Virus record (IMG/VR): IMGVR_UViG_3300030116_007754
Coordinates: 5,052-69,051 of that record
Origin: a virus
Direction: 5' to 3' (one strand)
Length of the DNA stretch: 64,000 nt
The notes beneath the pieces were generated by a model. That model worked only from the letters and a program-made list of their open reading frames with translations. It did not search any database and was not told the origin of the DNA. Below, one piece after another: positions 27,671-60,051 of the stretch. The number at the start of each line of letters is the position of its first letter. The stretch's first letter is position 1. Both the position numbers and the translations under genes were made by a program.

Positions 27671-30600
27671 TTACCTCTGTAATGCAAGTACTCTTAGATC
27701 TCTAACCCTAGGTGGATTACTTGGATCAGTTGTTAGTAATACTATTTTTATTTTAAACTTCTTAAACCCTGTAAATGTTACTCCGTTTGAGTTAGTGTAT
27801 TGAATTGAACTATTGATACCTGTCATAACATCATTAGTTGGTGTATATTGATATTCTTTAAAATCGTTTTGATTTTCAGAACTACTATAAACTGTTGATA
27901 CAGTATTCTGTGACATTTGAACATAACTTACATCTAGTGCTAAAGAATCTTCATCATCTGCATGTAGTATTTTATAATATACATTTATATTAGCTGTTTC
28001 AGGTTTGTAAGCATCAAATATAACTCTAATATCTTCTGCATCTTGTCCTTCGTTTAGTTCTACAGTTTTAGTAATATATCTTGCATCTGCTCCTCCACCT
28101 TGAACTAATGTTTCTCCAGTAGAATCATTATTAATAATATTTTCCATTGCACAGAAGTTTCCTAATTGTAAATCTATAGCTGGGCTCATTCTTTTGTCTG
28201 AGCTGTTAGACATAGCATATCTAATCTCAACTGATTTTTGACCACTTAGATTAGAAACTTCTCTTGATCTACTAAACACAAACTTTCTATCTCCTAATCT
28301 TGTTAGTTCGTTAACCTCATAATCAGAAAATTCTGAATCTAATGTTGTTTCTGTAGTACCCATTTTACCAGTAGCTGAAATAGAACATCCTGGTAGATCC
28401 ATTTGAGTACTTTGTAAGAATTGAATATCACTTGGTACTACTTGAATCTCATCTATATGTCCTTTAATATTTCCATTTGTTGAGATAAAGAATGTATTGG
28501 CTCTAAAGTCACCAGTACTATTGTTTAACACTAAAATTCTACTGTTAGCACTTGTAAACTCATCTAAGTTGTAAACAGTACCAATAGGAGTTGTAAATGA
28601 ACTTGTATTAACTGTACTTGTATTGCCTATAATAGTTCCAGTTAATGAGTCTCCACTTCTGAATCTTAAAAATTTACCAGAACCCATTCTTGCAAAAGGT
28701 GGTCTTGGTGGAACTACGTCTATACTATCTAACTGAATTGAAATAGTTTTAGAAGAAGTGTTTACTGATCTTACTTTACCAGTTTCTCTAATAGTTAGCG
28801 AGTTTGTAACATCAGCTAAGTTAGTTAATGGATTGTATCTAAAATTACCAATACTTCTGTTAGAATCAACTTCAACATTAGCAAAGAAATTCCTAGCTGG
28901 ATCAACAAGTAGTTTTGTATTAGCAAGAGTTCCATATGTTACAACTGTTTCTCCATAACATGCATCCTGTAAGTTAATAAACCTTGAAGTTGTATTAGAA
29001 ACCTTAAAGTATTCAACATCTTTATTTTTAAGTACAGCAGTACCACTCTGATTAGTTCCAAAATCAGCAACATACAGATTCATTTTTAAATCTTCTTCTT
29101 GTTGTTGTCTCCAAGTTAGTTCGTTTGCTGAAACAAAAAGTATTCCATTATGTGGTTGTGTTGTAATTCTTGATTCTGTTTTTCTATCAAGTTCACCAAG
29201 CCTAGCAGTCCAAACTTTACAATCTAAGTTTCTAGGTTCAGGTCTAACTACTAAACAATAAGAATAATTAGTTTTTAAGAATATAGGTGTATCAAAAAAT
29301 ACTGGAGTTGGTATAGATCCATCACTACTAGTATTGATTTCATATGGATCTAATGTAACTGTACTATGAGGTACAACATCTTGTGTAGGTTGATTAGTAG
29401 AAGGATCCATTACTCTTATTTCAACATCAACTGTATGAGTAGGTGATTTTGTTTCAAAATAAATTTCAGCTTTTGTTAAGAAAACACCTGGAGAACTTAT
29501 TTCTTCTGTAATTAAGTCGTTTCCTATAACATCCTTTTCAATAAAGAAAGACTGTGCTAATGGATCAACCCAAGTTCTTCTTCTAGTCTCAACTCTTCTA
29601 TTTGATTGTTGACTAACTCCTATAGATCTAGTACTTAATGTAGTAGCAGATTTAGTAACTGTTAAACCAGATGCTTGCAATGTTGCTTCTGCAGATGAGT
29701 TAACTATTCCAAGTTCGTTTGAATTTGTTGAAGAATCAGTAATCCTTAATGGTATTCTACTACCAGTTCTAAATCTAAGTTCATCAGTAGCTGGTAAATG
29801 GAATGAGAAGTTCATATCTCCATTTGCAGAAGTTACCATTGAATGTGGACTTCCTCTTGATGTTACATTTGCAAAACAAAATCCTCCATTAGCATGTAAT
29901 GTATCAGGATCAATTTTTGAAATATATTCAGATACATCTGTACCATCAAAGAATGCAAAATGTTTAGTTCTTGGTTTTAATCCGTGTACAGCTACATCAA
30001 TTCTAGCAGCTTTTATAAATGGTTGTATACTAACATCCTGAACCATATCAAAAGTACTTTCTTGTGTTTCACCAAAATCAAAATCTGTAACAGTAGTATC
30101 AATCTGTCTTGTTACAGTATCAGTGATAGCTCTACCTCTTCTTTCTCTTGTTGAGCTTAAAATTGTTACATCAGTAACATTAGAATATCCATTTCTTGTA
30201 TTTGGATGTAATCTTCTAAGTTCAGCGTCTATATGTCTTATAGCTTCAATAGCTCCATTATCTAAATCTATTCTAACTTCAGGACCTAAATTTTGATCTG
30301 CCCAAATCAATCTATCTGGGTTAAGTGTCATAGTTCCAACATAGTTATGAGATAAACCTTGAGCATTTCTTCCTTGAGATGCATAAGGTTGACTAATTAT
30401 TAATTCATCACTATAAGGTAATGTTAATAAATGTCCAATTGGTCTTAATCCTAAACCAGGAAAGTTTCCACCTTGTTGGTTATGAGGTACTCCATGTGTT
30501 TCAGCTTGTTGTCTTGAATATAAATATGATCCTCTGTATCTGTTAAAAAATAGACGTTGCCAAAAACTAAGACTACCATATCTCACAACTGTGCTTCTAG

Positions 30601-33600
30601 TAACTCCTGATGTTCCACCAGTAATAGTTACATTGTTAGCTATGGATACAGATCCATTCCAGTCTCTAATGTATAATTTTTGATTGTTATTGTTGTCTCC
30701 ATTAATAGTGTTTGAAGTTCCTGTAATTTTATGGATTATTCCTGAGGCCGAACCAATAGATACTGTTTCTCCTTCTATAAAATTATCAACACTACCATTA
30801 ATTCCAACTACAATATTTTTAGATCTAGCAGTTACATTTGAACTATTTGAAAAAGCCCAGTTTAACTCCATATTCTTCATTGCAACTTTAGGTGAAAGCT
30901 CATGTGCTTCTTGATCAATACCAATATTATAATCAGCATTTCTTACATCTCCAACATTATGTGTTTGGAAATTATCAACCAAGAAACCATTTTTAAATCT
31001 AGCAAAACCTGTATCATCTTTTACATCAAACTGACGTGCTTTAGCTTCTAATAATGATAAAGAAGTATAATACTCTAAAGTTCTAATTCTATCATCTAAC
31101 ACACCGATATCAGCCATAGTATATCTTCTTGTTGCAACTTCTCTTATTTCACTAGCTAAATCAGGTCTTTTAAATCTGAGTGCTGATTGAAAAGGTAATG
31201 ATGGATATGGTTTTTGTGTTATATAAGCTAATGGCATCATATCCGGATTGAATGTGTTTGGAAAGAATGGTCTTTCTCTAGGAACACCTTTATCAACTCT
31301 TAAATCTCCATTACCATCTATCAATACTATATCTCTTCTTCCAAGATAAATTTGAAGATCAACATCAAAGTTACTTGCTGGAATAGGATAGTGTAATCCA
31401 CCTGATGTTTCAACTATAGTTGTTCTTGTAGATGGATTAGTTGTTGCACTTGCTAGTGCTGTTGTATCTGTAGCTGAATCTTGAATTCTAGGACGAACAT
31501 CAATATGACCTCTCAAATCATATTGTCTTCCAGTTACTGGTGAAGTATATACTGGAATCTCAGCTGTTGCTATTGCAACATTACTTGAAGTATTAGCATC
31601 ATTAATAGGATAACTATCAACTGAAAAATAACCTGTTCCTTGAGAACTATCATGTGCAAAATAATCTAAACTAACTAAAAGATGATCAGTATTAGATATT
31701 TGCAATGCAGAATCTGGAGCTTTTTTAATTTTACCATGATCATAAAAATTATCTCTTTGTCCAAAATCTAATAAAAAGTCAGATGTTACATCAGTTCCTT
31801 GAGTTGCAGATGTAAAAGCTGATGAACTTTTTCTAATAAAATTAATATTAAATACATCTGAAAATCCTAAATTGTATGGACCTTCAAAATTATTGGATCC
31901 ACTAGCAGTGTTAGCTAATGCATTGTTTCCAACAAATATTTTGACTAATCTTTTGGTTCTTAATAATTTAGATTTTTCTTTACCATTTTGTTTTCTTAAT
32001 TTAGTAGTAATTCTAGCATTAACAGAAGTTCTTAATTCTTCCTTCAAAGCAAAATTAACTGATGTTGAAGATGCTACTGTTGCAGTTCTATCTGCTCCAG
32101 CACTAGAACCATTGTTAGCTCCTTTACCACTTAAATTAATTACAGTGCCTGCTGGAAATACTTTTTCATAACCTCTGGCTGAAATAGTTCCACTTGAAGT
32201 TTCTAATGTTTTAATAGTTGTTGAATTTGTTATTTCACTTACTGTAAATATATCGGTTTGACCAAAAGGTCTAATTTTATCTCCAATTGCAAACATTGTA
32301 TCAAAACTAGTACCAGTACCATTTAATGTATTTGAAGTTCCTGTTACTGATACTTGTCCAGTAAGTCCACCTGTGTTAGCTCCAGAATCTAGAACTACAT
32401 GAAAATTTTGTTGTTTTTGTGTTGTACTTAAAGCACCAGTTCCTAAAATAAATGTTTCATCTGCATCAGATGATACTGAAAAAGTTCCATCTGTTCCAAT
32501 AGTTGCTGTAAATGTTTTGTAGAAATCAAACTCAGTATCAACTGATCCTGATGAATCTCTAACAGTTTTTATGAACATTGATGGTAGTTCAAAAACACCT
32601 CTATTGAAACCAGAATCTGTAAGTACTGTATTTGAATTTACTTGAACTGCATCAGCTTTAGCTATTGGTCCTGATCCTGTTGGCGGATCATAATAAAAAC
32701 TTTTAACATTGTTAAATGTGTTTGCAGTCATTTTGATATCATAAAGATACATTTTATACAATGCGTTTTGTGAACCTCTTAATCCAGATGAATGTTCTAA
32801 ACCTCTTATTCTTGCTTCACCAATTTTATTTCCTTCTTTTCCTGTAACACCTAATGAAGTATTAGATACACTATGTTGAACTTTGTCATATAATTCAACT
32901 CTATCATGACCACTAACATCCCAAGAACCACTTAACTCTCTTACATTTACAAAGTTACCATAGTTTGCAGATACTAGTACATCATCTTTTTGTTTATGTG
33001 TGATAGCTTTATCAAGTGCTAAGTGTTTAGTAACTATATCTTCATTTCTAAATCCTGCAACATAAGAAACACCAGATGTCTTTTCAATAGCTACTTGCTG
33101 AGTATTACCACCAGCTGATGAAGTTAAAAATCCTTGGTTATTTCCTTCTCTAAGATGTTCTTTGAGTGTAATTTTATTACCAGTAATATTATAGTTACCA
33201 CTCTCTTCATGAGTCCTTTCAGCCATTGCATCACCAAGCTCATTATATCTTGGTTCATTGCCTAACATAGTCATGTAGCCATTTTTAAATCTAACTAATT
33301 CAACAAAGTCTGATGCAGTTTCACTATCTAAATATTTAACTAACGAAGGAGTAATAGTTAATCTGTTAGCACCTGGAGCTGTATAGTTATATGCTCCTTG
33401 AGCTGGATCTAATAATGTTGTATCTGTATTACTTGTAGTAATACTTTCTGTTAATTTAAATCCTACTCTAAAATTAGCTGTATTAGAATTATACTCACCA
33501 ACCACTATAGAAGTAGCAGGAACAGCTATGAAATGATCTTTAGCAAATATAACACCTTGTCCAAAAGTAACTCTACTACCAAAACCATCTGCTGCTGATG

Positions 33601-34102
33601 CTAAAACTCTAGCTGTCTGTCCTGTATTAGAAGTTAAAACTTCACCAGCTGTAAAAGTAGTTTGTGTTGTTGTATTACCACCATCTGTGTATTGTAAATA
33701 AAGTGTTTTTGTACCTGGAGTATTTGCTTCACTACCAAACTTTGTATCAACTACTAACGCTTTAACACCACTAGTATTACCAGTAACTTCAGTATTAAGT
33801 AATAAACTTAAATTAGCTACACCACCAGTTGCATTATTATCTCTAATTCTAATAAATGGTACTCTTTCATCATAAGCAACTTCAACTCCTCTTACTACTG
33901 ATCCTTCTTTAAATACATGTTCTGCAAATCTATCAATTTGATTCTGTAATAGAGTTTGCATCTGAGTTAGCTCTCTAGCTTGTACAGCTAATCCAGGTCT
34001 AAATAAAAGTCTATAAAAATTCTTATCTTCTTTGAAATCGTCGTAATATGGATCTACATTTAGACTTGTTCTTAATGATTGTGTGTTACTTATTCCTACC
34101 AT
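27671..34102 (-). CDS. Large virion structural protein, VrlC/DUF4815-like
   Basis: PYYDDF..LFRPGLAVQARELTQMQT..APGANRL..RTHEESGNY..LEYYTSLSLLE..RFKNGFLVDNF..DPLAQSF..PRVRDLRVLAL. Confidence 0.85.
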   Translation of the reverse strand: MVGISNTQSLRTSLNVDPYYDDFKEDKNFYRLLFRPGLAVQARELTQMQTLLQNQIDRFAEHVFKEGSVVRGVEVAYDERVPFIRIRDNNATGGVANLSLLLNTEVTGNTSGVKALVVDTKFGSEANTPGTKTLYLQYTDGGNTTTQTTFTAGEVLTSNTGQTARVLASAADGFGSRVTFGQGVIFAKDHFIAVPATSIVVGEYNSNTANFRVGFKLTESITTSNTDTTLLDPAQGAYNYTAPGANRLTITPSLVKYLDSETASDFVELVRFKNGYMTMLGNEPRYNELGDAMAERTHEESGNYNITGNKITLKEHLREGNNQGFLTSSAGGNTQQVAIEKTSGVSYVAGFRNEDIVTKHLALDKAITHKQKDDVLVSANYGNFVNVRELSGSWDVSGHDRVELYDKVQHSVSNTSLGVTGKEGNKIGEARIRGLEHSSGLRGSQNALYKMYLYDIKMTANTFNNVKSFYYDPPTGSGPIAKADAVQVNSNTVLTDSGFNRGVFELPSMFIKTVRDSSGSVDTEFDFYKTFTATIGTDGTFSVSSDADETFILGTGALSTTQKQQNFHVVLDSGANTGGLTGQVSVTGTSNTLNGTGTSFDTMFAIGDKIRPFGQTDIFTVSEITNSTTIKTLETSSGTISARGYEKVFPAGTVINLSGKGANNGSSAGADRTATVASSTSVNFALKEELRTSVNARITTKLRKQNGKEKSKLLRTKRLVKIFVGNNALANTASGSNNFEGPYNLGFSDVFNINFIRKSSSAFTSATQGTDVTSDFLLDFGQRDNFYDHGKIKKAPDSALQISNTDHLLVSLDYFAHDSSQGTGYFSVDSYPINDANTSSNVAIATAEIPVYTSPVTGRQYDLRGHIDVRPRIQDSATDTTALASATTNPSTRTTIVETSGGLHYPIPASNFDVDLQIYLGRRDIVLIDGNGDLRVDKGVPRERPFFPNTFNPDMMPLAYITQKPYPSLPFQSALRFKRPDLASEIREVATRRYTMADIGVLDDRIRTLEYYTSLSLLEAKARQFDVKDDTGFARFKNGFLVDNFQTHNVGDVRNADYNIGIDQEAHELSPKVAMKNMELNWAFSNSSNVTARSKNIVVGINGSVDNFIEGETVSIGSASGIIHKITGTSNTINGDNNNNQKLYIRDWNGSVSIANNVTITGGTSGVTRSTVVRYGSLSFWQRLFFNRYRGSYLYSRQQAETHGVPHNQQGGNFPGLGLRPIGHLLTLPYSDELIISQPYASQGRNAQGLSHNYVGTMTLNPDRLIWADQNLGPEVRIDLDNGAIEAIRHIDAELRRLHPNTRNGYSNVTDVTILSSTRERRGRAITDTVTRQIDTTVTDFDFGETQESTFDMVQDVSIQPFIKAARIDVAVHGLKPRTKHFAFFDGTDVSEYISKIDPDTLHANGGFCFANVTSRGSPHSMVTSANGDMNFSFHLPATDELRFRTGSRIPLRITDSSTNSNELGIVNSSAEATLQASGLTVTKSATTLSTRSIGVSQQSNRRVETRRRTWVDPLAQSFFIEKDVIGNDLITEEISSPGVFLTKAEIYFETKSPTHTVDVEIRVMDPSTNQPTQDVVPHSTVTLDPYEINTSSDGSIPTPVFFDTPIFLKTNYSYCLVVRPEPRNLDCKVWTARLGELDRKTESRITTQPHNGILFVSANELTWRQQQEEDLKMNLYVADFGTNQSGTAVLKNKDVEYFKVSNTTSRFINLQDACYGETVVTYGTLANTKLLVDPARNFFANVEVDSNRSIGNFRYNPLTNLADVTNSLTIRETGKVRSVNTSSKTISIQLDSIDVVPPRPPFARMGSGKFLRFRSGDSLTGTIIGNTSTVNTSSFTTPIGTVYNLDEFTSANSRILVLNNSTGDFRANTFFISTNGNIKGHIDEIQVVPSDIQFLQSTQMDLPGCSISATGKMGTTETTLDSEFSDYEVNELTRLGDRKFVFSRSREVSNLSGQKSVEIRYAMSNSSDKRMSPAIDLQLGNFCAMENIINNDSTGETLVQGGGADARYITKTVELNEGQDAEDIRVIFDAYKPETANINVYYKILHADDEDSLALDVSYVQMSQNTVSTVYSSSENQNDFKEYQYTPTNDVMTGINSSIQYTNSNGVTFTGFKKFKIKIVLLTTDPSNPPRVRDLRVLALQR

Positions 34103-53274: not shown

Positions 53275-54321
53275 TTATTTTTCCTTCTTTAACCAATTTG
53301 GATCAAACTTAGTAAGTTCTTTTCCATGTTTGAAGTATTTAGCCTGTTCAGCTGATGGTAATGGAATTAATCCTTTTGAGACCAAATAACCATCTTCACC
53401 AGTAGCTCTATTTGATGTGAATTCCAGTACATACTCTTTTATTCCTGGTATCACAGCAGCGTGGACATTCTTTACATAAAACCATAATGATCTTGAAACT
53501 GGATATGTACCATTACTAATTAATTCAAATTCTGGTAACACACCATTAACAGTTGATGCTTTTACTTTATCTCTATTTTCATCTAAAAATGAATAACCAA
53601 ATATACCTAATGAGTTAGGATTTGTTATCAATTTTTCGATTATTAAATTATCATTCTCACCAGCTTCTATATAAGGACCATCTGTTCTTATTGAACGACA
53701 TTCTGCTTTATATAATTTCTTATTATTTTCTTTAAGTTTTTTTCTACCTGGATAACTTTTACAACCTTTTTCTATAGCAAGTTCATTAAGTGCATCTCTA
53801 GTACCTGATGTTGGTGGAGGACCATAAACAAGAATAGGTAAATCTGGGTATGTAGGATTTATTTCATTCCATTTTTTATATGGATTTGGTTTTACAGTTT
53901 TACCAGTTGGATCCGCTGGTACATCTTTTGCAAGTGCAAGATATAAATCTCTTGTTGATAAATGAAAGTCAACACCTTTTTTAGAATTTGCAACAACTAT
54001 ACCATCATAACCTATTTTTACTTCTGTAATATCTTCTATACCATTTTTTTTACAATTGTTTACTTCAGTTTGTTTTATTCTTCTTGAAGCATTTGTAATA
54101 TCAGGATGTTCTGTACCAACACCTGCACAAAACAATTTCAATCCACCACCTGAACCAGTTGATTCTATTACTGGTGTCTTATAACCACTTGTTTTACCAA
54201 ATCGTTCTGCTACTACTGTTGCAAATGGATATACAGTTGAACTACCAACTACTTTAATTTGATCTCTTGCAAATACTGAACCTGCAAAAAGTATTGTAAA
54301 TAAAAAACATATTTTCTTCAT
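53275..54321 (-). CDS. pstS: Phosphate ABC transporter substrate-binding protein (AMG)
   Basis: Signal peptide, RDQIKVVGSSTVYPF..ESTGSGGG.KLFC.G..NASRRIK..GPPPTSGTRD..YPVSR.LWFYVK. Confidence 0.93.
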   Translation of the reverse strand: MKKICFLFTILFAGSVFARDQIKVVGSSTVYPFATVVAERFGKTSGYKTPVIESTGSGGGLKLFCAGVGTEHPDITNASRRIKQTEVNNCKKNGIEDITEVKIGYDGIVVANSKKGVDFHLSTRDLYLALAKDVPADPTGKTVKPNPYKKWNEINPTYPDLPILVYGPPPTSGTRDALNELAIEKGCKSYPGRKKLKENNKKLYKAECRSIRTDGPYIEAGENDNLIIEKLITNPNSLGIFGYSFLDENRDKVKASTVNGVLPEFELISNGTYPVSRSLWFYVKNVHAAVIPGIKEYVLEFTSNRATGEDGYLVSKGLIPLPSAEQAKYFKHGKELTKFDPNWLKKEK

Positions 54322-54396
54322 TCAATTCTCCTTAAAATTTTTATTTATTTTACAAAAATTAAAGTTCATAAAAACTTCATAATTATCTGTACATCT

Positions 54397-54930
54397 TTAT
54401 TTTTCTTTATAATCTTCACCTTTAAGATAACTTAAAATGTTCTGAGGTGATGTAACTCCATATGGATCACCAGGACAGTTATCTTCTCTTCCAGGTTCTT
54501 CAAATATCTTTTCAACACTACCAGCTGAAATAACAGCTGCATATCTCCAAGATCTTTTACCAAAACCTAGATTGGACTTTTCAACTAACATTCCCATACC
54601 AGAAGTAAATTCACAATTACCATCAGGTAAAACTTTTACATTTTGAATATTATGATGTTTAGCCCAAGCATTCATAACAAAAGAATCATTTACTGAAATA
54701 CAATAAATGTTATCAATACCTTCATTCTTAAACTGATCATACAATCTGTTAAAATCAGGTAATTGATATGTTGAACAAGTTGGAGTAAATGCTCCAGGTA
54801 AAGAAAACAATATATGTTTTCCCTTACCAAAATAATAATCAGTAGATCGTTCAACCCATTTAAAAGGATTATCGCCCTCTATGTTATCGTCTCTCTCTCT
54901 GACTTTAAATATTACGTGTGGTAAAATCAT
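54397..54930 (-). CDS. Peroxiredoxin, Prx5/redoxin type (AMG)
   Basis: FSLPGAFTPTCS..CISVNDSFVMNAW..LPDGN..GFGKRSWRYA. Confidence 0.92.
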   Translation of the reverse strand: MILPHVIFKVRERDDNIEGDNPFKWVERSTDYYFGKGKHILFSLPGAFTPTCSTYQLPDFNRLYDQFKNEGIDNIYCISVNDSFVMNAWAKHHNIQNVKVLPDGNCEFTSGMGMLVEKSNLGFGKRSWRYAAVISAGSVEKIFEEPGREDNCPGDPYGVTSPQNILSYLKGEDYKEK

Positions 54931-55532
54931 AAGAATACCTTTCTTAATATTTCCTTTCCTTTTTTGGGATCAAAGTTTACAAAAGGACGATATTTTTCCA
55001 TCCTTTTTTTAAATTCAATCCAAACTGGATCTGTTAAAACTTTGTTCCATTTCTTTGTATAATTTAGTACGCTATCTACAATAACCATAGTTTCAACATA
55101 GATATCATTTCTTAAAACACACTGTAAGAGAATCGGATGTCCGTTCTCCATAACAAATAGACTTTGAAAATTAAGTTTTCTTTCATCATAATAATCTTTT
55201 AAAAATAAAAGATCTTGCTCAAAGATATAACTTAGACTCTCTTGTCTTTTTTTCCAATTATTATACACCTCTTCTGCTTTCAAAGTCAACACATTTCCTA
55301 CCCAGAAATCTTCACCATCAGCAAAGTTTGATACAAATAATTCTCTTATTTGATCAGGTGTATATTTTCTTTCAAGTTTATTAAAGAAAAACTTATCTCT
55401 TCTCTTTAAAAAACTATCAGTTTTTGCATTCACTTTACCATTATATTTAAAATAATCATACGAAGTTGTAAAGTGATTCTTTACAGCAAGATATGTCTTA
55501 TAAGCATTGAATCCTTCGTATATATTATTCAT
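54927..55532 (-). CDS. gp59: Helicase loader (T4 gp59)
   Basis: AYKTYLAVKNHFT..YDYFKYNGK..FLKRRDKFFF..HPILL..KY.PF. Confidence 0.9.
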   Translation of the reverse strand: MNNIYEGFNAYKTYLAVKNHFTTSYDYFKYNGKVNAKTDSFLKRRDKFFFNKLERKYTPDQIRELFVSNFADGEDFWVGNVLTLKAEEVYNNWKKRQESLSYIFEQDLLFLKDYYDERKLNFQSLFVMENGHPILLQCVLRNDIYVETMVIVDSVLNYTKKWNKVLTDPVWIEFKKRMEKYRPFVNFDPKKGKEILRKVFL

Positions 55533-55734
55533 TGGCTTTTATTAACTTTAACTCTCTTGCTTCTTCTTTCAATCTTGTTTTTATTTTTTGATTAACTAAT
55601 TTAGCTGCTGATTCAATCTCTAAATTATTCTTTTGACAATAATCAGTTATAGCATCTAAATAAGAAATCTCTTTTGTTTCTACTACTTCAATAATTATCT
55701 TACTAAACTTAGCAGTTGTTAATATATTAATCAT
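55525..55734 (-). CDS. gp33: Late transcription coactivator (T4 gp33)
   Basis: FS..I..V..ISYLDAITDYC..N.LEIE..KL...IK..LKEEA..L. Confidence 0.85.
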   Translation of the reverse strand: MINILTTAKFSKIIIEVVETKEISYLDAITDYCQKNNLEIESAAKLVNQKIKTRLKEEARELKLIKANE

Positions 55735-56078
55735 TTGTTCATTTTCCCAACACTCTTTCTTTGAATATCTTCAGACAAAAGCTCGGGCCAATAAATCTCA
55801 AAAGCGATAGTATCTTTATTAGCTTTAAATAAATGATACTCTCCAGGTTTAACTGACATAAAATCTCCTGGTCCTAAAACCGTCTTGTCAATTAAATCAT
55901 AGTCGTTCTTTATTACATGGATTTCAAGTTCTCCTTCTTCTACAAAAAATCCATTCCACTTATGTGAATGTTTATGTGTACTACATTCACCACCTTTATT
56001 AACTTCTATTCGGTGAAACTCTACTACAGGATTTTGTAGTAGAGATTCCGTTACTCCCCATACTTTACCAGCTTTCAA
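55731..56078 (-). CDS. Cupin-domain protein
   Basis: Likely TTG start (MKAGKVWG, RBS AAGGA) at 56078 rather than 56183; CSTHKHSHKWNGFFVEEG..PGEYHLF..AFEIYW. Confidence 0.8.
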   Translation of the reverse strand: MKAGKVWGVTESLLQNPVVEFHRIEVNKGGECSTHKHSHKWNGFFVEEGELEIHVIKNDYDLIDKTVLGPGDFMSVKPGEYHLFKANKDTIAFEIYWPELLSEDIQRKSVGKMNK

Positions 56079-56079
56079 T

Positions 56080-56748
56080 TTAGTTCCTTTCTGTATAAAA
56101 AATATGGTCTTCATGTTTAACTGTATACAACTTTTCTTTAGCCCAATAAGGTCTAACATAAGTTGCATGATACCATAAAGCACCTTTTGTTACATCAACC
56201 ATATCATACCCCGATAAAACTTGATGGGCAACAGCTAATGCTAATTCGTAAGCATCTTGGTCTCTAATGATATCAGCTTTACCATCACAGTACCAACTAA
56301 ACTGACATCTATCTTTTAGCGGTACTTCTTTGTTTAATTTTTCCTTGTACCATTTACTTAATTGTGCCTCATACACAACACCACAAACAGTGTTAGGAAA
56401 GTCTTCATGTTGTACTCTATTCATTACAACTTGACTTACAGCTATTTGAGAAAGTATAGATTGATTTCTAGCTTCAAAGTAAGCATTCTTTGCTAAACAA
56501 ACAACACTTTCAATATCTTTCTCAGCAGTTTTGTCTCCAGAATAATATTCATTCATTATTCTAAGACGAGTTTCAAGGCCCATTCCAGGTTTGTGAACCT
56601 CTTCCCAGTCTGTCAACAGCCTAGGTGGACCTTCGTCTAATTTCTCTTTTACCTCTTCAGGTGTATCCAATGTAGCAATTGAAAAGATTATATAACAAAA
56701 TCCTACAATCAAAAACCACGTTGGGATTCTAAAGTTTGGTAATCTCAT
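56080..56748 (-). CDS. Cell-wall hydrolase, SleB/Hydrolase_2 family
   Basis: CLAKNAYFEARNQ..AVSQVVMNRV..FPNTVCGVV..CQFSWYCDG..GALWYHATYV.P.W..HIFY; N-terminal TM anchor. Confidence 0.92.
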   Translation of the reverse strand: MRLPNFRIPTWFLIVGFCYIIFSIATLDTPEEVKEKLDEGPPRLLTDWEEVHKPGMGLETRLRIMNEYYSGDKTAEKDIESVVCLAKNAYFEARNQSILSQIAVSQVVMNRVQHEDFPNTVCGVVYEAQLSKWYKEKLNKEVPLKDRCQFSWYCDGKADIIRDQDAYELALAVAHQVLSGYDMVDVTKGALWYHATYVRPYWAKEKLYTVKHEDHIFYTERN

Positions 56749-56848: not shown

Positions 56849-57241
56849 CTACTCTTTGCAACTACACTTTACTTCATAATCTTTGATCGCAGCTTTGATA
56901 GCGTCTTCTGCAAGAACAGAACAATGGATTTTAACTGGTGGTAACGCCAAAGTTGTTGCAATGTCAGTATTCCTAATTTTCGTTGCTTCATCTGTATTTT
57001 TTCCTTTTACCATTTCAGTTATAAGTGAACTAGATGCGATAGCTGAACCACATCCAAATGTTTTAAATTTAGCATCAGTAATAGTTTTAGTTTCTGGATC
57101 CACTTTTATCTGTAGTTTCATAACATCACCACAAGCTGGTGCACCTACTAATCCTGTTCCAACATTTGGATCCTCTTTATCCATAGACCCAACGTTTCTT
57201 GGATTCTCATAATGATCTATTAATTGTTTACTATATGCCAT
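56849..57241 (-). CDS. iscU: Fe-S cluster scaffold protein IscU (AMG)
   Basis: MAYS..IDHYENPRNVG..GAPACGDVMKLQI..FKTFGCGSAIASSS..LPPVKIHCSVLAEDAIKAA. Confidence 0.96.
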   Translation of the reverse strand: MAYSKQLIDHYENPRNVGSMDKEDPNVGTGLVGAPACGDVMKLQIKVDPETKTITDAKFKTFGCGSAIASSSLITEMVKGKNTDEATKIRNTDIATTLALPPVKIHCSVLAEDAIKAAIKDYEVKCSCKE

Positions 57242-57246
57242 ACTAA

Positions 57247-57254
57247 TATTTATA
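57247..57254 (-). promoter_or_regulatory. Late promoter TATAAATA directly before iscU
   Basis: TATAAATA-ttagt-ATG. Confidence 0.65.
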
Positions 57255-58188
57255 TAACTTTGAGCTCTTCAGTTATTCTCTTTATATAATGATCTCTAAC
57301 CATATCACCTTCGTGAACAAATAACATACAAGAGCAATATGCACAGTTTCTTCCTTGTAAAAGATACTCTAATATAATATGTTTATAATCCTTTATTTTA
57401 TTATTATGTTTAATCAATGGAATAGTATCAATATTATTCCTATCTAATAATTCAACTGAATTATATATAAAGTCTGTTGTATCTTCATGTTTCAAATTAT
57501 TTAACTTTAAAAAATTAGCATATTTTATTTTATCTCTATTATATAAACTAAACAATAAAGAATATACTGTACCAAATTGATGTTTCAATTCATCAGACTC
57601 AAATAGATCAGCTGTATCACTTATCAATCCATCAGGAGTAACATCACTAATAGCTGCCTTATCCCACAAGAAGTTCCATTCACTATCTAACATATATTCT
57701 AATAATTCTGTTAACTTTTTTGGATCACCGTTGTCTTCAATGTATTCTTTTCGATTACATTTGTAATCCATTTTAAAATAATACTGTTTGTTGAAAGGAT
57801 CATAATTAATTACATCTATTATATCAACTGAAGATCTTTTAAATATTCTAGAATTATCAACTATAGTTTTTTCTTTAACACTACATCCACCAATATAGTC
57901 AGGAAAAAAAGGTTGATATCTTGACTGAAAAATTCCTGTTTTATTCTTCCATACTTTTTTAGTTACTTGGTAACCCATATAAAAGATATCTGTCTTTATA
58001 ATATCTTCATAGTCGTTATCATTTTCAACATCTAATATATGATGAAATTTATAAGGTATGCCTGTACCTTTATAATAATGTTTGGATCCTTTCCATACAC
58101 GACCTCTAACATAAGTCAGATCATCATCTATAACTATTTGATTTGTTTTGTTACCTTGTTGATTATAGATTGGTACGATAGTAGTCAT
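57250..58188 (-). CDS. Hypothetical protein (312 aa, C-terminal CAYCSC)
   Basis: Long ORF between pqqA and iscU with its own promoter; family not recognised. Confidence 0.6.
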   Translation of the reverse strand: MTTIVPIYNQQGNKTNQIVIDDDLTYVRGRVWKGSKHYYKGTGIPYKFHHILDVENDNDYEDIIKTDIFYMGYQVTKKVWKNKTGIFQSRYQPFFPDYIGGCSVKEKTIVDNSRIFKRSSVDIIDVINYDPFNKQYYFKMDYKCNRKEYIEDNGDPKKLTELLEYMLDSEWNFLWDKAAISDVTPDGLISDTADLFESDELKHQFGTVYSLLFSLYNRDKIKYANFLKLNNLKHEDTTDFIYNSVELLDRNNIDTIPLIKHNNKIKDYKHIILEYLLQGRNCAYCSCMLFVHEGDMVRDHYIKRITEELKVI

Positions 58189-58193
58189 AATAC

Positions 58194-58222
58194 ATTGTAC
58201 CTTAGTTGAGAAAAAAAGTCAA
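58194..58222 (-). promoter_or_regulatory. sigma70 promoter TTGACT-N17-TACAAT (leaderless mRNA for 57250-58188)
   Basis: -35 at 58217-58222, -10 at 58194-58199, ATG after a 5-nt gap. Confidence 0.65.
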
Positions 58223-58253
58223 TGGGCTAGTTTCTATGAAAGACTTAGCCCAT
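58211..58253 (-). terminator. Intrinsic terminator downstream of pqqA
   Basis: Minus strand ATGGGCTAAG..loop..CTAGCCCAT followed by TGAC-TTTTTTT. Confidence 0.65.
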
Positions 58254-58264
58254 GACAAAAGAAA

Positions 58265-58342
58265 TTACTTCTCTGCGCAAGCGTAAGAGTTAATTTCAAG
58301 ACCTACAGAGATTTCTGTAATTTGAGGTTTTGTCCAAGACAT
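58265..58342 (-). CDS. pqqA: Pyrroloquinoline quinone precursor peptide PqqA
   Basis: Not in ORF track. MSWTKPQITEISVGLEINSYACAEK (25 aa): W-x-x-P leader, G-x-E-I-N-x-Y core with the E-xxx-Y pair that forms PQQ; strong RBS AAGGAG 5 nt before ATG; terminator after the stop. Confidence 0.9.
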   Translation of the reverse strand: MSWTKPQITEISVGLEINSYACAEK

Positions 58343-58373
58343 GTTTGCTCCTTATATTAATATTAATATTTGT

Positions 58374-58417
58374 TTGAGCCGGTTGCCGAACGACCGCGGT
58401 CCTCATACATTATTTAG
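58374..58417 (-). promoter_or_regulatory. Late-like promoter box CTAAATA and GC-rich 5' leader hairpin of pqqA
   Basis: CTAAATA at 58411-58417, then UGAG-GACCG-CGGU-CGUUCGGCA-ACCG-G-CUCA stem-loop in AT-rich surroundings. Confidence 0.5.
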
Positions 58418-58505
58418 AATACCATACTACATTGTATCTGAACCTACGATTAACAACTCGTTAAGAAAACTATATTTTTTGATTTTTTTTTATAATAATA
58501 ATCAA

Positions 58506-58649
58506 TTAGAAGTATTCACGAATCTTATCGAGAGGTTTTTTAAGTGGCTTATATACACTCATTATAAGTTCTACATGATTGTCTAACTTTTTTTCTATCC
58601 TATCAATTTGTTTTTGAATTTTGTCAAGTTTTTTTTCAAGATCAGACAC
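58506..58649 (-). CDS. Small coiled-coil hypothetical protein
   Basis: Not in ORF track. GTG start overlapping the iscA stop; 47 aa MSDLEKKLDKIQKQIDRIEKKLDNHVELIMSVYKPLKKPLDKIREYF. Confidence 0.55.
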   Translation of the reverse strand: MSDLEKKLDKIQKQIDRIEKKLDNHVELIMSVYKPLKKPLDKIREYF

Positions 58650-58965
58650 TGAAAGATTCTCCACAACCACAAGATGATTTAGTAAGTGGATTATTTATTT
58701 TAAGAAAACTTCCCATAAGTTCTTGAACATAATCAATCTCACTTCCCATAATATACATTTCTGCAACCTTATCTATAGCAAGTACAACATTATCTCTAAT
58801 TGGGTATATAGAGTGAGAATTATCGTAACTATCAAGATAATCCCACTTATAACTGAATCCAGCACATCCTCCTCCTGAAACTCCAAATGATATTATATCT
58901 TTGTTATTTTTCTTAGCAATAGAATACAAATATTCTTTTGCACTATCTGTTACTGTAACTATCAT
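58642..58965 (-). CDS. iscA: A-type Fe-S carrier, IscA/HesB family (AMG)
   Basis: VTDSAKEY..GVSGGGCAGFSY..GSEIDYV..GS...NP..SSCGCGESFSV. Confidence 0.93.
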   Translation of the reverse strand: MIVTVTDSAKEYLYSIAKKNNKDIISFGVSGGGCAGFSYKWDYLDSYDNSHSIYPIRDNVVLAIDKVAEMYIMGSEIDYVQELMGSFLKINNPLTKSSCGCGESFSV

Positions 58966-59713
58966 AAGTAAACATATTTCCTAAATTATCTGTTGCTTCT
59001 ATATAAACTTCTTTGTTAGAAGTATTTATTGGCATCATAAAAAATACATCTTGAGCAATACCAATAGTTCCATTATATTCCCAAACAAGTTTTTTATCAA
59101 CCCACATTTTTACATTATCAATATATTCAGCTGGAATCTCACTTCTGGTTAATTGATTGAATTGCATTCCTGAAAAGTTTGGATGCCATATTTTTATTTT
59201 AGTCCAACCATTTGTTTGTAGTAAGTTGATAGTTCCAAAAACCTTATCTGTTATATTCAATGGAGGTGCTGAACAACCTCCTGCAGCTTTAATAAATTGT
59301 TTGTTATATCTTTTATTACCGTAACTATCTTCTGATACTAAGGTCAAGTAAGTGTATGCATTTACTCTAACATTAGTCATTACAAATGGTTCTATATTGT
59401 GAAATTCAAACTCAGCACAACATGGTGATGGGTTGTCATCTATAATTAAAGTTAACTTTGTGAAGTATTGTATTCCTGTTCCAGCATCTCTAAGTGTAAC
59501 TTCTACACCAGCTGGATCTATTGCTCTATATGGTGCTTGGATTTGTACACTATCATCATAAAATAAATATTCATTTCCAAATATATCTTCCTTTAACCAT
59601 TCATCCCAAGTAGAAGTCTTAGCATATGTTGCAGAAGCTAACCATATAATTAATCCAAAGACTATCATCATTACATAAAAAAACCATTTTAAAAACCAAT
59701 CTGGATCCCTCAT
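58943..59713 (-). CDS. Fused SoxY/SoxZ-like carrier, quinoprotein-dehydrogenase-associated type
   Basis: N-terminal TM/signal; APYRA.D..V..LIIDDNPSP..F..TNVRVNAYT..KAAGGCSAPP (SoxY-like swinging arm) followed by HPNFSGMQ..Q..IPA.YI (SoxZ-like). Confidence 0.8.
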   Translation of the reverse strand: MRDPDWFLKWFFYVMMIVFGLIIWLASATYAKTSTWDEWLKEDIFGNEYLFYDDSVQIQAPYRAIDPAGVEVTLRDAGTGIQYFTKLTLIIDDNPSPCCAEFEFHNIEPFVMTNVRVNAYTYLTLVSEDSYGNKRYNKQFIKAAGGCSAPPLNITDKVFGTINLLQTNGWTKIKIWHPNFSGMQFNQLTRSEIPAEYIDNVKMWVDKKLVWEYNGTIGIAQDVFFMMPINTSNKEVYIEATDNLGNMFTYDSYSNR

Positions 59714-60051
59714 CTATTTCTCCAATCTCTTTTGTCGCCTCTCGGCTGTGTTACTGTTTTGACACATATGTGGTTACTATGTGTAGTTATTACAAATTCA
59801 TCTCTCACTTCTTTATAATCCTGACATCTATAATGACACTTAACAGAGTCATCACCAAAGAAAGGTTCTACTCTTTTTTCTTTTACTAATCTACAAGAGA
59901 CAAAGTATTGATTTCTTTGATCATATAATCTACCTTTACCACTCCACTTGTAGTTATTAACTAATGTAGGATGTACACAATTAGGTGTATGTATATGACT
60001 TATTGTCAATGTAGGATAAAACAAAATTATTAGTATTAAAAATATTCTCAT
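59710..60051 (-). CDS. Secreted Cys-containing hypothetical protein
   Basis: Signal-like N-terminus, five Cys; ATGA-coupled to the SoxYZ-like gene. Confidence 0.55.
   Translation of the reverse strand: MRIFLILIILFYPTLTISHIHTPNCVHPTLVNNYKWSGKGRLYDQRNQYFVSCRLVKEKRVEPFFGDDSVKCHYRCQDYKEVRDEFVITTHSNHICVKTVTQPRGDKRDWRNR

Follow-up and report, generated by a model that had tools for sequence, protein, structure and literature searches.

The pqqA gene and its phage context

The window analyzed here is a 64,000-nucleotide stretch of DNA (GC content, 32.3%) that makes up bases 5052 to 69051 of a 69,051-base viral record in IMG/VR, IMGVR_UViG_3300030116_007754. On its minus strand, at positions 58265 to 58342, lies a 25-codon open reading frame (ORF) that begins with ATG and encodes the peptide MSWTKPQITEISVGLEINSYACAEK. 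An initial annotation, made from the letters of the DNA, had called this ORF a phage-borne pqqA, the gene for the precursor peptide of the cofactor pyrroloquinoline quinone (PQQ). The reading frame was confirmed, and the AAGGAG ribosome-binding site (RBS) assigned to it was found 5 nt 5′ of the ATG (58353 to 58348). A purine-rich AGGAG-type block precedes the ATG in all 14 aligned sequences. The gene is a very short stand-alone ORF with an RBS of its own, and it is indeed too short for gene callers, from which the annotation had supposed that its size would hide it.

The peptide passed both of the curated hidden Markov models that had been proposed as a check on its family. It scored 35.1 bits with the Pfam PqqA model PF08042 (cut-off, 21.1) and 39.6 bits with TIGR02107 (cut-off, 20; E = 3e-10; 37.5 bits in a six-frame search), and TIGR02107 found nothing above its cut-off in 14 control genomes. 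In PqqA, a Glu and a Tyr three residues apart are the pair cross-linked by PqqE, and E16-I-N-S-Y20 was invariant in all 32 phage coding sequences (CDS) described below. T4-type genes for the portal, tail sheath, large terminase, baseplate wedge and hub, gp32, and gp59 lie on both sides of pqqA on the record, confirming that it sits in phage DNA.

Downstream of pqqA, the minimum free energy fold of the 60 nt past the stop codon (58264 to 58205) was a stem-loop followed by a U7 tract, with an energy of −16.4 kcal/mol (z = −4.59) that was matched by none of 200 shuffles. The GC-containing hairpin and the U tract directly after it (58256 to 58211) constitute a predicted rho-independent terminator, in keeping with the initial annotation. 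A simple consensus scan of positions 57900 to 58900 reported no terminators, because the hairpin loop exceeds the 8-nt loop limit of the scan. Four folded relatives likewise had a hairpin and a T run after the pqqA stop codon (z = −3.3 to −4.6, with L007 at −1.4). Across the relatives these hairpins share their position with that of the window, while their stem sequences are unrelated.

Conservation of pqqA among viruses

Using the 312-amino-acid (312-aa) protein encoded next to pqqA as bait, we fetched 38 related IMG/VR loci. pqqA was present in 32 of them, in one case cut by the contig end, and in the other six the contig ends before the place where it would be expected. The 31 complete CDS and that of the window, 32 in all, represented 13 DNA alleles, and every one kept the frame, start, stop, and RBS. 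Residues 13 to 24 (VGLEINSYACAE) were invariant although 11 of their 12 codons varied synonymously, and replacements were limited to positions 2 to 12 and 25. Since the core changed only synonymously while the neighboring 312-aa protein is just ~60% identical between the two phage clades, there is strong evidence that selection has acted on the peptide and not on the RNA. Judged by this substitution pattern, strong purifying selection maintains the PqqA peptide in many phage lineages, and E-xxx-Y, whose conservation in related phages the annotation had proposed as a check, was invariant.

We then scanned IMG/VR with a degenerate DNA pattern for nine core residues, which yielded at least 120 further loci with 78 distinct peptides and GC contents of 30 to 42%. 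These loci are uninformative about conservation of the core, which the search pattern itself fixes. The W-x-K/T-P leader and the VGL motif that precedes the core are not part of the pattern, and VGL was kept in nearly all of the variants listed. Two viral peptide types, ...EINSYACAEK and ...EINCYACAEI, were found among the matches listed. The ORF clusters flanking pqqA in the viral loci listed included Cpn10, a gp33-like late-transcription coactivator, gp59, a 2-oxoglutarate-Fe(II) oxygenase, cupin, holin, the small terminase, and DUF1353.

We looked within 2 kb of pqqA in the 120 viral loci listed for homologues of four host proteins, PqqB, PqqC, PqqE, and the dehydrogenase, and none of the loci had one. 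A second search covered 317 kb of phage DNA, made up of the window, the remaining 5 kb of the record, and the 38 loci. It likewise gave no homologues of the host proteins PqqB, PqqC, PqqD, and PqqE, the MoxJ-like protein, or the dehydrogenase (best E = 0.34), so that linkage to pqqBCDE was absent from the phage DNA examined. Such linkage is usual but not required, because the candidate hosts described below also carry orphan pqqA copies. The viral peptide resembles bacterial PqqA in its size, its W-x-K/T-P leader, its E-x-x-x-Y core, the hairpin after its gene, and its passing of both model cut-offs; bacterial PqqA includes orphan copies too, some of the one to five matches per candidate host genome lying far from pqqBCDE. 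It differs in being virus encoded, with no pqqB to pqqE in the phage DNA examined. pqqA is thus a host-type metabolic gene that lies between viral genes and is retained under selection, as an auxiliary metabolic gene (AMG) would be.

A tblastn search with pqqA against 50,697 deposited phage records returned only two contigs, both labeled "Acinetobacter phage MD-2021a." The one examined has a true pqqA upstream of pqqB and served as an unplanned positive control for the search. This contig (L002; CAKLQF020000010.1, 103204 to 113263) holds fur, ppk, and pqqB to pqqE, and because of these genes we regard it as bacterial DNA, apparently mislabeled. pqqA is absent from the deposited phage genomes searched.

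Candidate hosts

Run on one genome per prokaryote species, the core pattern found at least 122 loci, nearly all titled Alphaproteobacteria, which bears out the alphaproteobacterial type first assigned to the core. Among the matches listed, the closest cellular peptides were identical to the viral peptide at 20 to 22 of 25 positions. All came from loci of 26 to 35% GC, titled as single-cell or metagenome-assembled genomes of uncultured marine Alphaproteobacteria and, in one case, as "Rickettsiales bacterium."

Five AT-rich genomes of 1.3 to 2.0 Mb (G001 to G005) were taken as candidate hosts. PqqE scored above its cut-off in all five, and all five had a match to a PQQ-dependent dehydrogenase of the methanol/ethanol family, four of them above the cut-off and 2 to 3 kb from pqqE. 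The likely hosts therefore have the equipment that had been supposed for them, pqqBCDE together with a PQQ-dependent dehydrogenase of this family. In G001 the locus reads pqqA (MAWTKPMISEISVGLEINSYACAEK), pqqB, pqqC, pqqD, pqqE, a MoxJ-like binding protein, a 203-aa ORF, and the dehydrogenase, with each named gene above its NCBIfam cut-off (dehydrogenase, TIGR03075, 665.9 bits). The dehydrogenase contains DEWDYDGVN and a vicinal Cys-Cys pair, and we take its D-Y-D to be the signature of lanthanide-dependent XoxF-type enzymes. The core and the cross-linked residues of the phage peptide are identical to those of the hosts' own operon-linked copies.

Extra pqqA copies, which the annotation had described as common in bacteria, proved normal in these genomes (one to five per genome). 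G001 has a second, orphan pqqA elsewhere, between DNA repair genes, and 18 of 31 relatives of G001 had pqqA above the cut-off, with one to five matches each. A second set of AT-rich genomes carries an EINCY-type peptide, mirroring the second viral type, and PqqE was present in five of five.

"Clade X" alphaproteobacteria are reported to have the most expressed xoxF5 genes in Tara Oceans data, according to the accessible part of PMC11996626. Our candidate host group may be the same, given the shared label, habitat, and enzyme. Our literature searches on PQQ with AEGEAN-169 or pelagiphages named no host, and the pelagiphage papers found have PQQ as a medium ingredient only.

A SoxYZ-like carrier beside pqqA

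A gene for a 256-aa protein with SoxY and SoxZ domains (PF13501 and PF08770) lies 0.6 kb upstream of pqqA. This protein scored 143.2 bits over the full length (positions 1 to 226) of the model TIGR04557 (cut-off, 140), which NCBIfam defines as a quinoprotein dehydrogenase-associated SoxYZ-like carrier, whereas it failed the models of true SoxY (TIGR04488; 30.5 bits versus a cut-off of 125) and true SoxZ (TIGR04490; 29.2 versus 76). Eleven further viral homologues scored 135.8 to 142.6 bits for TIGR04557, 27 to 38 for true SoxY, and 24 to 34 for true SoxZ. The phage carrier has no neighboring dehydrogenase; pqqA follows it 0.5 to 0.9 kb downstream on the same strand in 11 of the 12 viral loci, and in the twelfth just 208 bp remain downstream. 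No such carrier was found in the deposited phage genomes searched.

A search of 301 genomes, sampled evenly across the class, matched the carrier in 18 of them. The three best (37 to 38% identity) were in G014, G001, and G011, all of the G001 kin. Host homologues scored 225 to 237 bits with TIGR04557, and the G001 copy (236.6 bits) lies ~0.5 kb from the TIGR03075 dehydrogenase. None of the five candidate host genomes, which are incomplete, yielded SoxB.

Other features of the locus

The host-like genes around pqqA form an island on the minus strand (Table 1). In order of transcription, the genes on the 5′ side of pqqA encode a secreted, Cys-rich 113-aa ORF, the fused SoxY/SoxZ-like carrier, an IscA/ErpA-like protein, and a 54-aa ORF; on its 3′ side follow the 312-aa protein, the iron-sulfur (Fe-S) scaffold IscU, a cell wall hydrolase, a cupin, gp59, a peroxiredoxin, PstS, and gp32. 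The host-like genes between gp32 and iscU, for PstS, the peroxiredoxin, the cupin, and the SleB-like cell wall hydrolase, occupy 53275 to 56748 on the minus strand. The 3′ end of the 54-aa ORF is conserved in L003 to L005.

Table 1 Features at and around pqqA; positions are those of the window except for the transfer-messenger RNA (tmRNA) genes, which are numbered in the related viral loci
Feature	Position	Strand	Remarks	Basis
IscU Fe-S scaffold	56849..57241	minus	215.7 bits (cut-off 192.4)	TIGR01999
T4-type late promoter TATAAATA	57247-57254	minus	13 nt 5′ of iscU ATG	
312-aa protein downstream of pqqA	57250..58188	minus	no family match	
Intrinsic-terminator-like element	58211..58256	minus	hairpin (58256-58218) and U7 (58217-58211)	folding
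pqqA	58265..58342	minus	25 codons; E16 and Y20 (E-I-N-S-Y)	PqqA models, locus conservation
Shine-Dalgarno sequence AAGGAG	58348..58353	minus	5 nt upstream of pqqA ATG	
GC-rich conserved 5′ element in pqqA leader	58376..58402	minus	GACCGCGGTC..GGCAACCGGC	alignment
54-aa coiled-coil ORF	58506..58670	minus	between IscA-like gene and pqqA; no family above cut-off	
IscA/ErpA-like Fe-S cluster assembly accessory protein	58642..58965	minus	49.6 bits; 85.8 bits (cut-off 58.8)	PF01521; TIGR00049
Fused SoxY/SoxZ-like periplasmic carrier, 256 aa	58943..59713	minus	N-terminal hydrophobic segment; AAGGCSAP cysteine motif	TIGR04557
113-aa secreted Cys-rich ORF	59710..60051	minus	overlaps SoxYZ-like start; no family match	
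tmRNA genes in relatives	L032, 1947-2273; L007, 2664-2965; also L011, L036			ARAGORN, Rfam

Two neighbors were considered as PQQ-linked genes and set aside. The 312-aa gene, which had been the bait for the first set of loci, lies within 2 kb of pqqA in just 2 of the 120 viral loci listed and so has no general link to it. In 17 of the 120, a homologue of the 113-aa ORF is found no more than 2 kb from pqqA; in the host genomes, its single match was weak (E = 0.0026) and confined to one of five genomes, so it was dropped as a gene of the host PQQ cluster. The match, a 101-aa secreted Cys-rich ORF of G005 (L312, 1456 to 1761, minus strand), lies just upstream of an orphan pqqA.

The late promoter before iscU makes that gene look like a late gene; pqqA has no such motif. 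The other eight copies of TATAAATA on the minus strand (2912, 9050, 9653, 11675, 16212, 16874, 21794, and 36559) sit 24 to 59 nt upstream of structural genes. A sigma-70-like match, TTGACT-17-TACAAT (58194 to 58222, minus strand), extends over the end of the pqqA terminator and is kept in L003 to L005; only 5 nt separate its −10 box from the ATG of the 312-aa gene.

In phages of the more distant clade, an alphaproteobacterial permuted tmRNA gene lies just upstream of pqqA (ARAGORN; RF01849, 107 to 116 bits), ending 8 nt (by ARAGORN) to 65 nt (by Rfam) before the pqqA ATG. The tags encoded are ANDNFASQDFALAA and ANDNFANEEYALAA. Neither program found a tmRNA in the window or in L003 to L005, and Rfam gave only chance-level snoRNA and epsilon matches (E = 0.4 to 0.8) over positions 57900 to 58900. 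In alignment, the GC-rich element in the pqqA leader falls opposite the 3′ end of the distant-clade tmRNA gene or sequence just beyond it, and apparent compensatory changes in it were judged by eye, without a statistical test. Among the candidate hosts, G004 has two extra alpha-type tmRNA matches (L300, at G004:C5:23775-24128, and G004:C3:12903-13251), one of them with the odd tag ANRKALGFADLTVGMSKMRLAA. They scored 108 to 110 bits, like the phage copies, versus 185.5 bits for the genome's own tmRNA, and may be phage derived.

Elsewhere in the window, seven large paralogous ORFs (450 to 827 aa; 777 to 25704, minus strand) match phrog_19943 and phrog_27411, which are virion structural or tail fiber-like, and on these matches are a predicted expanded family of receptor-binding genes. 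A 2143-aa ORF lies at 27671 to 34102.

Occurrence in sequencing runs

Half or more of the words of a 3-kb stretch around pqqA were present in 17 runs from five studies, all of marine or seawater metagenomes; one of these runs may be the source. Three metatranscriptome runs from two studies contained small parts of the stretch. In the RNA libraries, contigs at 90% likeness cover the pqqA core (58262 to 58321) at mean word depths of 80 to 400. These are Logan contigs, which carry no strand, end, or level information. Among the RNA contigs of the three runs, none spanned the 312-aa gene or the greater part of the SoxYZ-like gene, an absence that in Logan contigs is uninformative.

Interpretation of the phage pqqA

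pqqA is a real gene and a sound AMG candidate of a kind already known. We consider it likely, from sequence comparison, that the ORF is a functional pqqA carried as an AMG by an uncultivated marine T4-like myophage. This explanation is the best because membership in the family, location in a phage, alphaproteobacterial type, invariance of E-xxx-Y, presence of the pathway in the candidate hosts, and the extra host copies all support it.

One PqqA peptide is consumed for every PQQ made. The phage gene would be transcribed during infection, perhaps by read-through from the upstream SoxYZ-like and IscA-like genes or, in the distant clade, from the tmRNA gene, and transcription would end at the hairpin and U7 terminator. 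Host PqqD would then bind the 25-residue peptide and the radical-SAM enzyme PqqE would cross-link E16 to Y20, after which host PqqB, PqqC, and a protease would complete PQQ for export to the periplasm, where it would load the XoxF-type dehydrogenase. Since the peptide is destroyed with each PQQ but the enzymes serve again and again, a phage that stops transcription by its host would need to replace only the consumable. We infer that the phage peptide supplies the dose-limiting substrate, as the initial annotation had put it, and the phage probably keeps methanol or alcohol oxidation by the host running during infection. The SoxYZ-like carrier, IscU, and IscA-like genes may serve the same aim as pqqA, the latter two fitting it because PqqE requires Fe-S clusters.

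Several observations weigh against this interpretation. Upstream of pqqA, no sigma-70-like site passed the scan of the minus strand from 58343 to 58505, and of the nine T4-type late promoters (TATAAATA) on the minus strand of the window none lies there. The promoter-like box that had been annotated upstream of pqqA was therefore not recovered, and because these scans were empty the idea that pqqA is its own transcription unit is borne out only at its 3′ end, by the predicted terminator. The record is ~40% complete by CheckV, so other pqq genes may lie elsewhere in the phage genome. The TIGR04557 score of the window's carrier is marginal; 8 of the 12 viral homologues, including that of the window, reach the cut-off, and the other four fall just below it, at 135.8 to 139.6 bits. 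The host, in our view AT-rich marine alphaproteobacteria, is inferred only from the likeness of the peptides, GC content, and the 37 to 38% identical SoxYZ-like match; the portal, the isolate homologue of the 312-aa protein, and the tmRNA tags, all taken up below, count against it. The RNA contigs show transcription of pqqA genes of this type that is not assignable to this phage. Most of those on the core continue into sequence unlike the window (a share of 0.97 in run X18), and they may derive from host pqqA genes or other phages. Only two low-depth contigs reach phage-like flanks, at 90 to 95% likeness. One, of 216 nt (depth, 2.4), spans pqqA and its leader to 58470 with 14 differences; the other, of 639 nt (depth, 4.07), joins iscU to pqqA and skips the 312-aa gene (~1.0 kb; window positions 57241 to 58264). 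A similar joint of iscU and pqqA occurs in a DNA run, and a variant phage with the two genes side by side therefore exists.

The same body of evidence bears on other explanations. The phage DNA examined holds the peptide gene and none of the enzymes, and leader residues 2 to 12 vary between phage lineages, as might be expected if the peptide were a competitor or regulator that, for example, occupied PqqD or PqqE to throttle PQQ synthesis, or if it had some other peptide role. We think this unlikely: a decoy would need neither the cross-linked residues nor the core, yet both are invariant and the same as in the hosts' operon-linked copies, and the SoxYZ-like carrier and Fe-S genes carried alongside suggest that the pathway is supported and not blocked. 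Quite unlikely, too, is infection of a host that lacks pqqBCDE (a cyanobacterium, for example, or a SAR11 lineage without the pathway), in which pqqA would be a relic or would be of use to the phage in only some of its hosts. On the side of such a host are the portal, whose nearest relatives are those of T4-like cyanophages (59% identity), the PstS and peroxiredoxin AMGs, the sole isolate homologue of the 312-aa protein, which is in Synechococcus phage S-CREM1 (43.6% identity), and the phage tmRNA tag ANDNFASQDFALAA, which differs from the ANDN[T/E]MALAA of the candidate hosts. A useless gene, however, would not keep a core with synonymous changes only across clades in which the neighboring protein is ~60% identical; moreover, the tmRNA of the relatives is of the alphaproteobacterial permuted type, and the AT-rich alphaproteobacterial group that gives the best cellular matches is the same for two phage genes.

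Recent passenger DNA from a host, without function for the phage, would account for the high identity to host peptides and for the location in a variable AMG island. It is very improbable, given that no related locus with enough DNA lacks pqqA, that the two clades which have it differ in its neighbors, that at least 120 other contigs, of several synteny types, carry it too, and that the substitution pattern points to selection within phages. What the distant clade adds, a tmRNA gene ending 8 to 65 nt before the ATG and a GC-rich leader element common to both clades, could be read as a conserved noncoding RNA, perhaps tmRNA related, in which the ORF is incidental. That seems exceedingly improbable: it is third codon positions that vary, all 32 CDS retain the frame, start, stop, and RBS, the model match is to a protein family, and no Rfam family covers the ORF.

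Relation to earlier reports

The initial annotation had taken a phage-encoded cofactor precursor peptide to be undescribed, which did not hold. In the part of the source available, Coutinho et al. (2020; PMC7678222) describe a Lake Baikal virus of methylotrophs that encodes a PqqA, for which they propose the same role, and the accessible portion of PMC13188868 (2026) lists viral pqqA, pqqE, and pqqD. The Lake Baikal virus, VP_266, which we compared by its description in the portion of PMC7678222 at hand, is like the present phage in encoding a PqqA that is proposed to increase the supply of PQQ to a methanol dehydrogenase dependent on it. It comes from fresh water, has a predicted methylotroph host, and carries a methanol dehydrogenase gene, whereas the present phage is marine and T4-like, has an alphaproteobacterial-type peptide, shows no dehydrogenase gene in the DNA seen, and has the SoxYZ-like carrier and Fe-S scaffold genes beside pqqA. 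In bacteria, a methylotroph with five pqqA copies and differing expression of multiple copies has been described (PMC9851590, in the part accessible). Our searches of the literature on phage pqqA and AMGs, on PQQ and pelagiphages, and on soxYZ and PQQ turned up no report of four points, which appear to be new: pqqA in a marine T4-like lineage that is broad in IMG/VR, its candidate alphaproteobacterial hosts, its linkage to the carrier, and its adjacency to tmRNA.

Cyanophages carry psbA, the gene for D1, as an AMG and so replace this fast-turnover protein. The likeness to pqqA is one of logic only, in that a phage encodes the fast-consumed part of a host energy system while the other parts persist; D1 is a protein subunit, whereas the PqqA peptide itself becomes a small-molecule cofactor.

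The carrier bears on published viral "soxYZ" genes. As far as the accessible text goes, Roux et al. (2016; bioRxiv 10.1101/053090) found soxYZ on T4-superfamily contigs by an Fe-S biosynthesis gene, proposed sulfur oxidation, and reported metatranscriptomic expression of viral soxYZ homologues, and Kieft et al. (2021; PMC8190135) extended the sulfur oxidation reading. The published gene shares with ours the fusion of SoxY and SoxZ on T4-like contigs, the adjacent Fe-S gene, the GGC cysteine motif, and PF13501 with PF08770. It was read as thiosulfate oxidation, whereas here TIGR04557 fits, the true SoxY and SoxZ models fail, and pqqA adjoins; in the text of each source as we had it, "methanol" is absent from bioRxiv 10.1101/053090 and "quinoprotein" from PMC8190135. 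We hypothesize that TIGR04557 also describes the carrier on the contigs of Roux et al. and Kieft et al., which we know by description and not by sequence comparison. It is possible, if on balance doubtful, that the fused "soxYZ" of abundant open-ocean T4-like phages does not serve sulfur oxidation at all. It would then be half of a module of carrier and pqqA, often with Fe-S scaffold genes, that sustains the lanthanide-type PQQ methanol dehydrogenase of AT-rich "Clade X" hosts formerly labeled "Rickettsiales" (PMC11996626).

The size of pqqA, too short for gene callers, explains how a viral gene present in at least 120 IMG/VR contigs went almost unnoticed. It links marine T4-like phages to PQQ-dependent, probably lanthanide-dependent, alcohol oxidation, and a phage that supplies a consumable cofactor precursor in place of an enzyme pursues an unusual AMG strategy. 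The follow-up on viral soxYZ raises the value of the pqqA finding, for it gives a concrete reason to reexamine an AMG that global analyses have counted as viral sulfur oxidation. If the proposed module of carrier and pqqA is real, viral infection would act directly on marine methanol oxidation.

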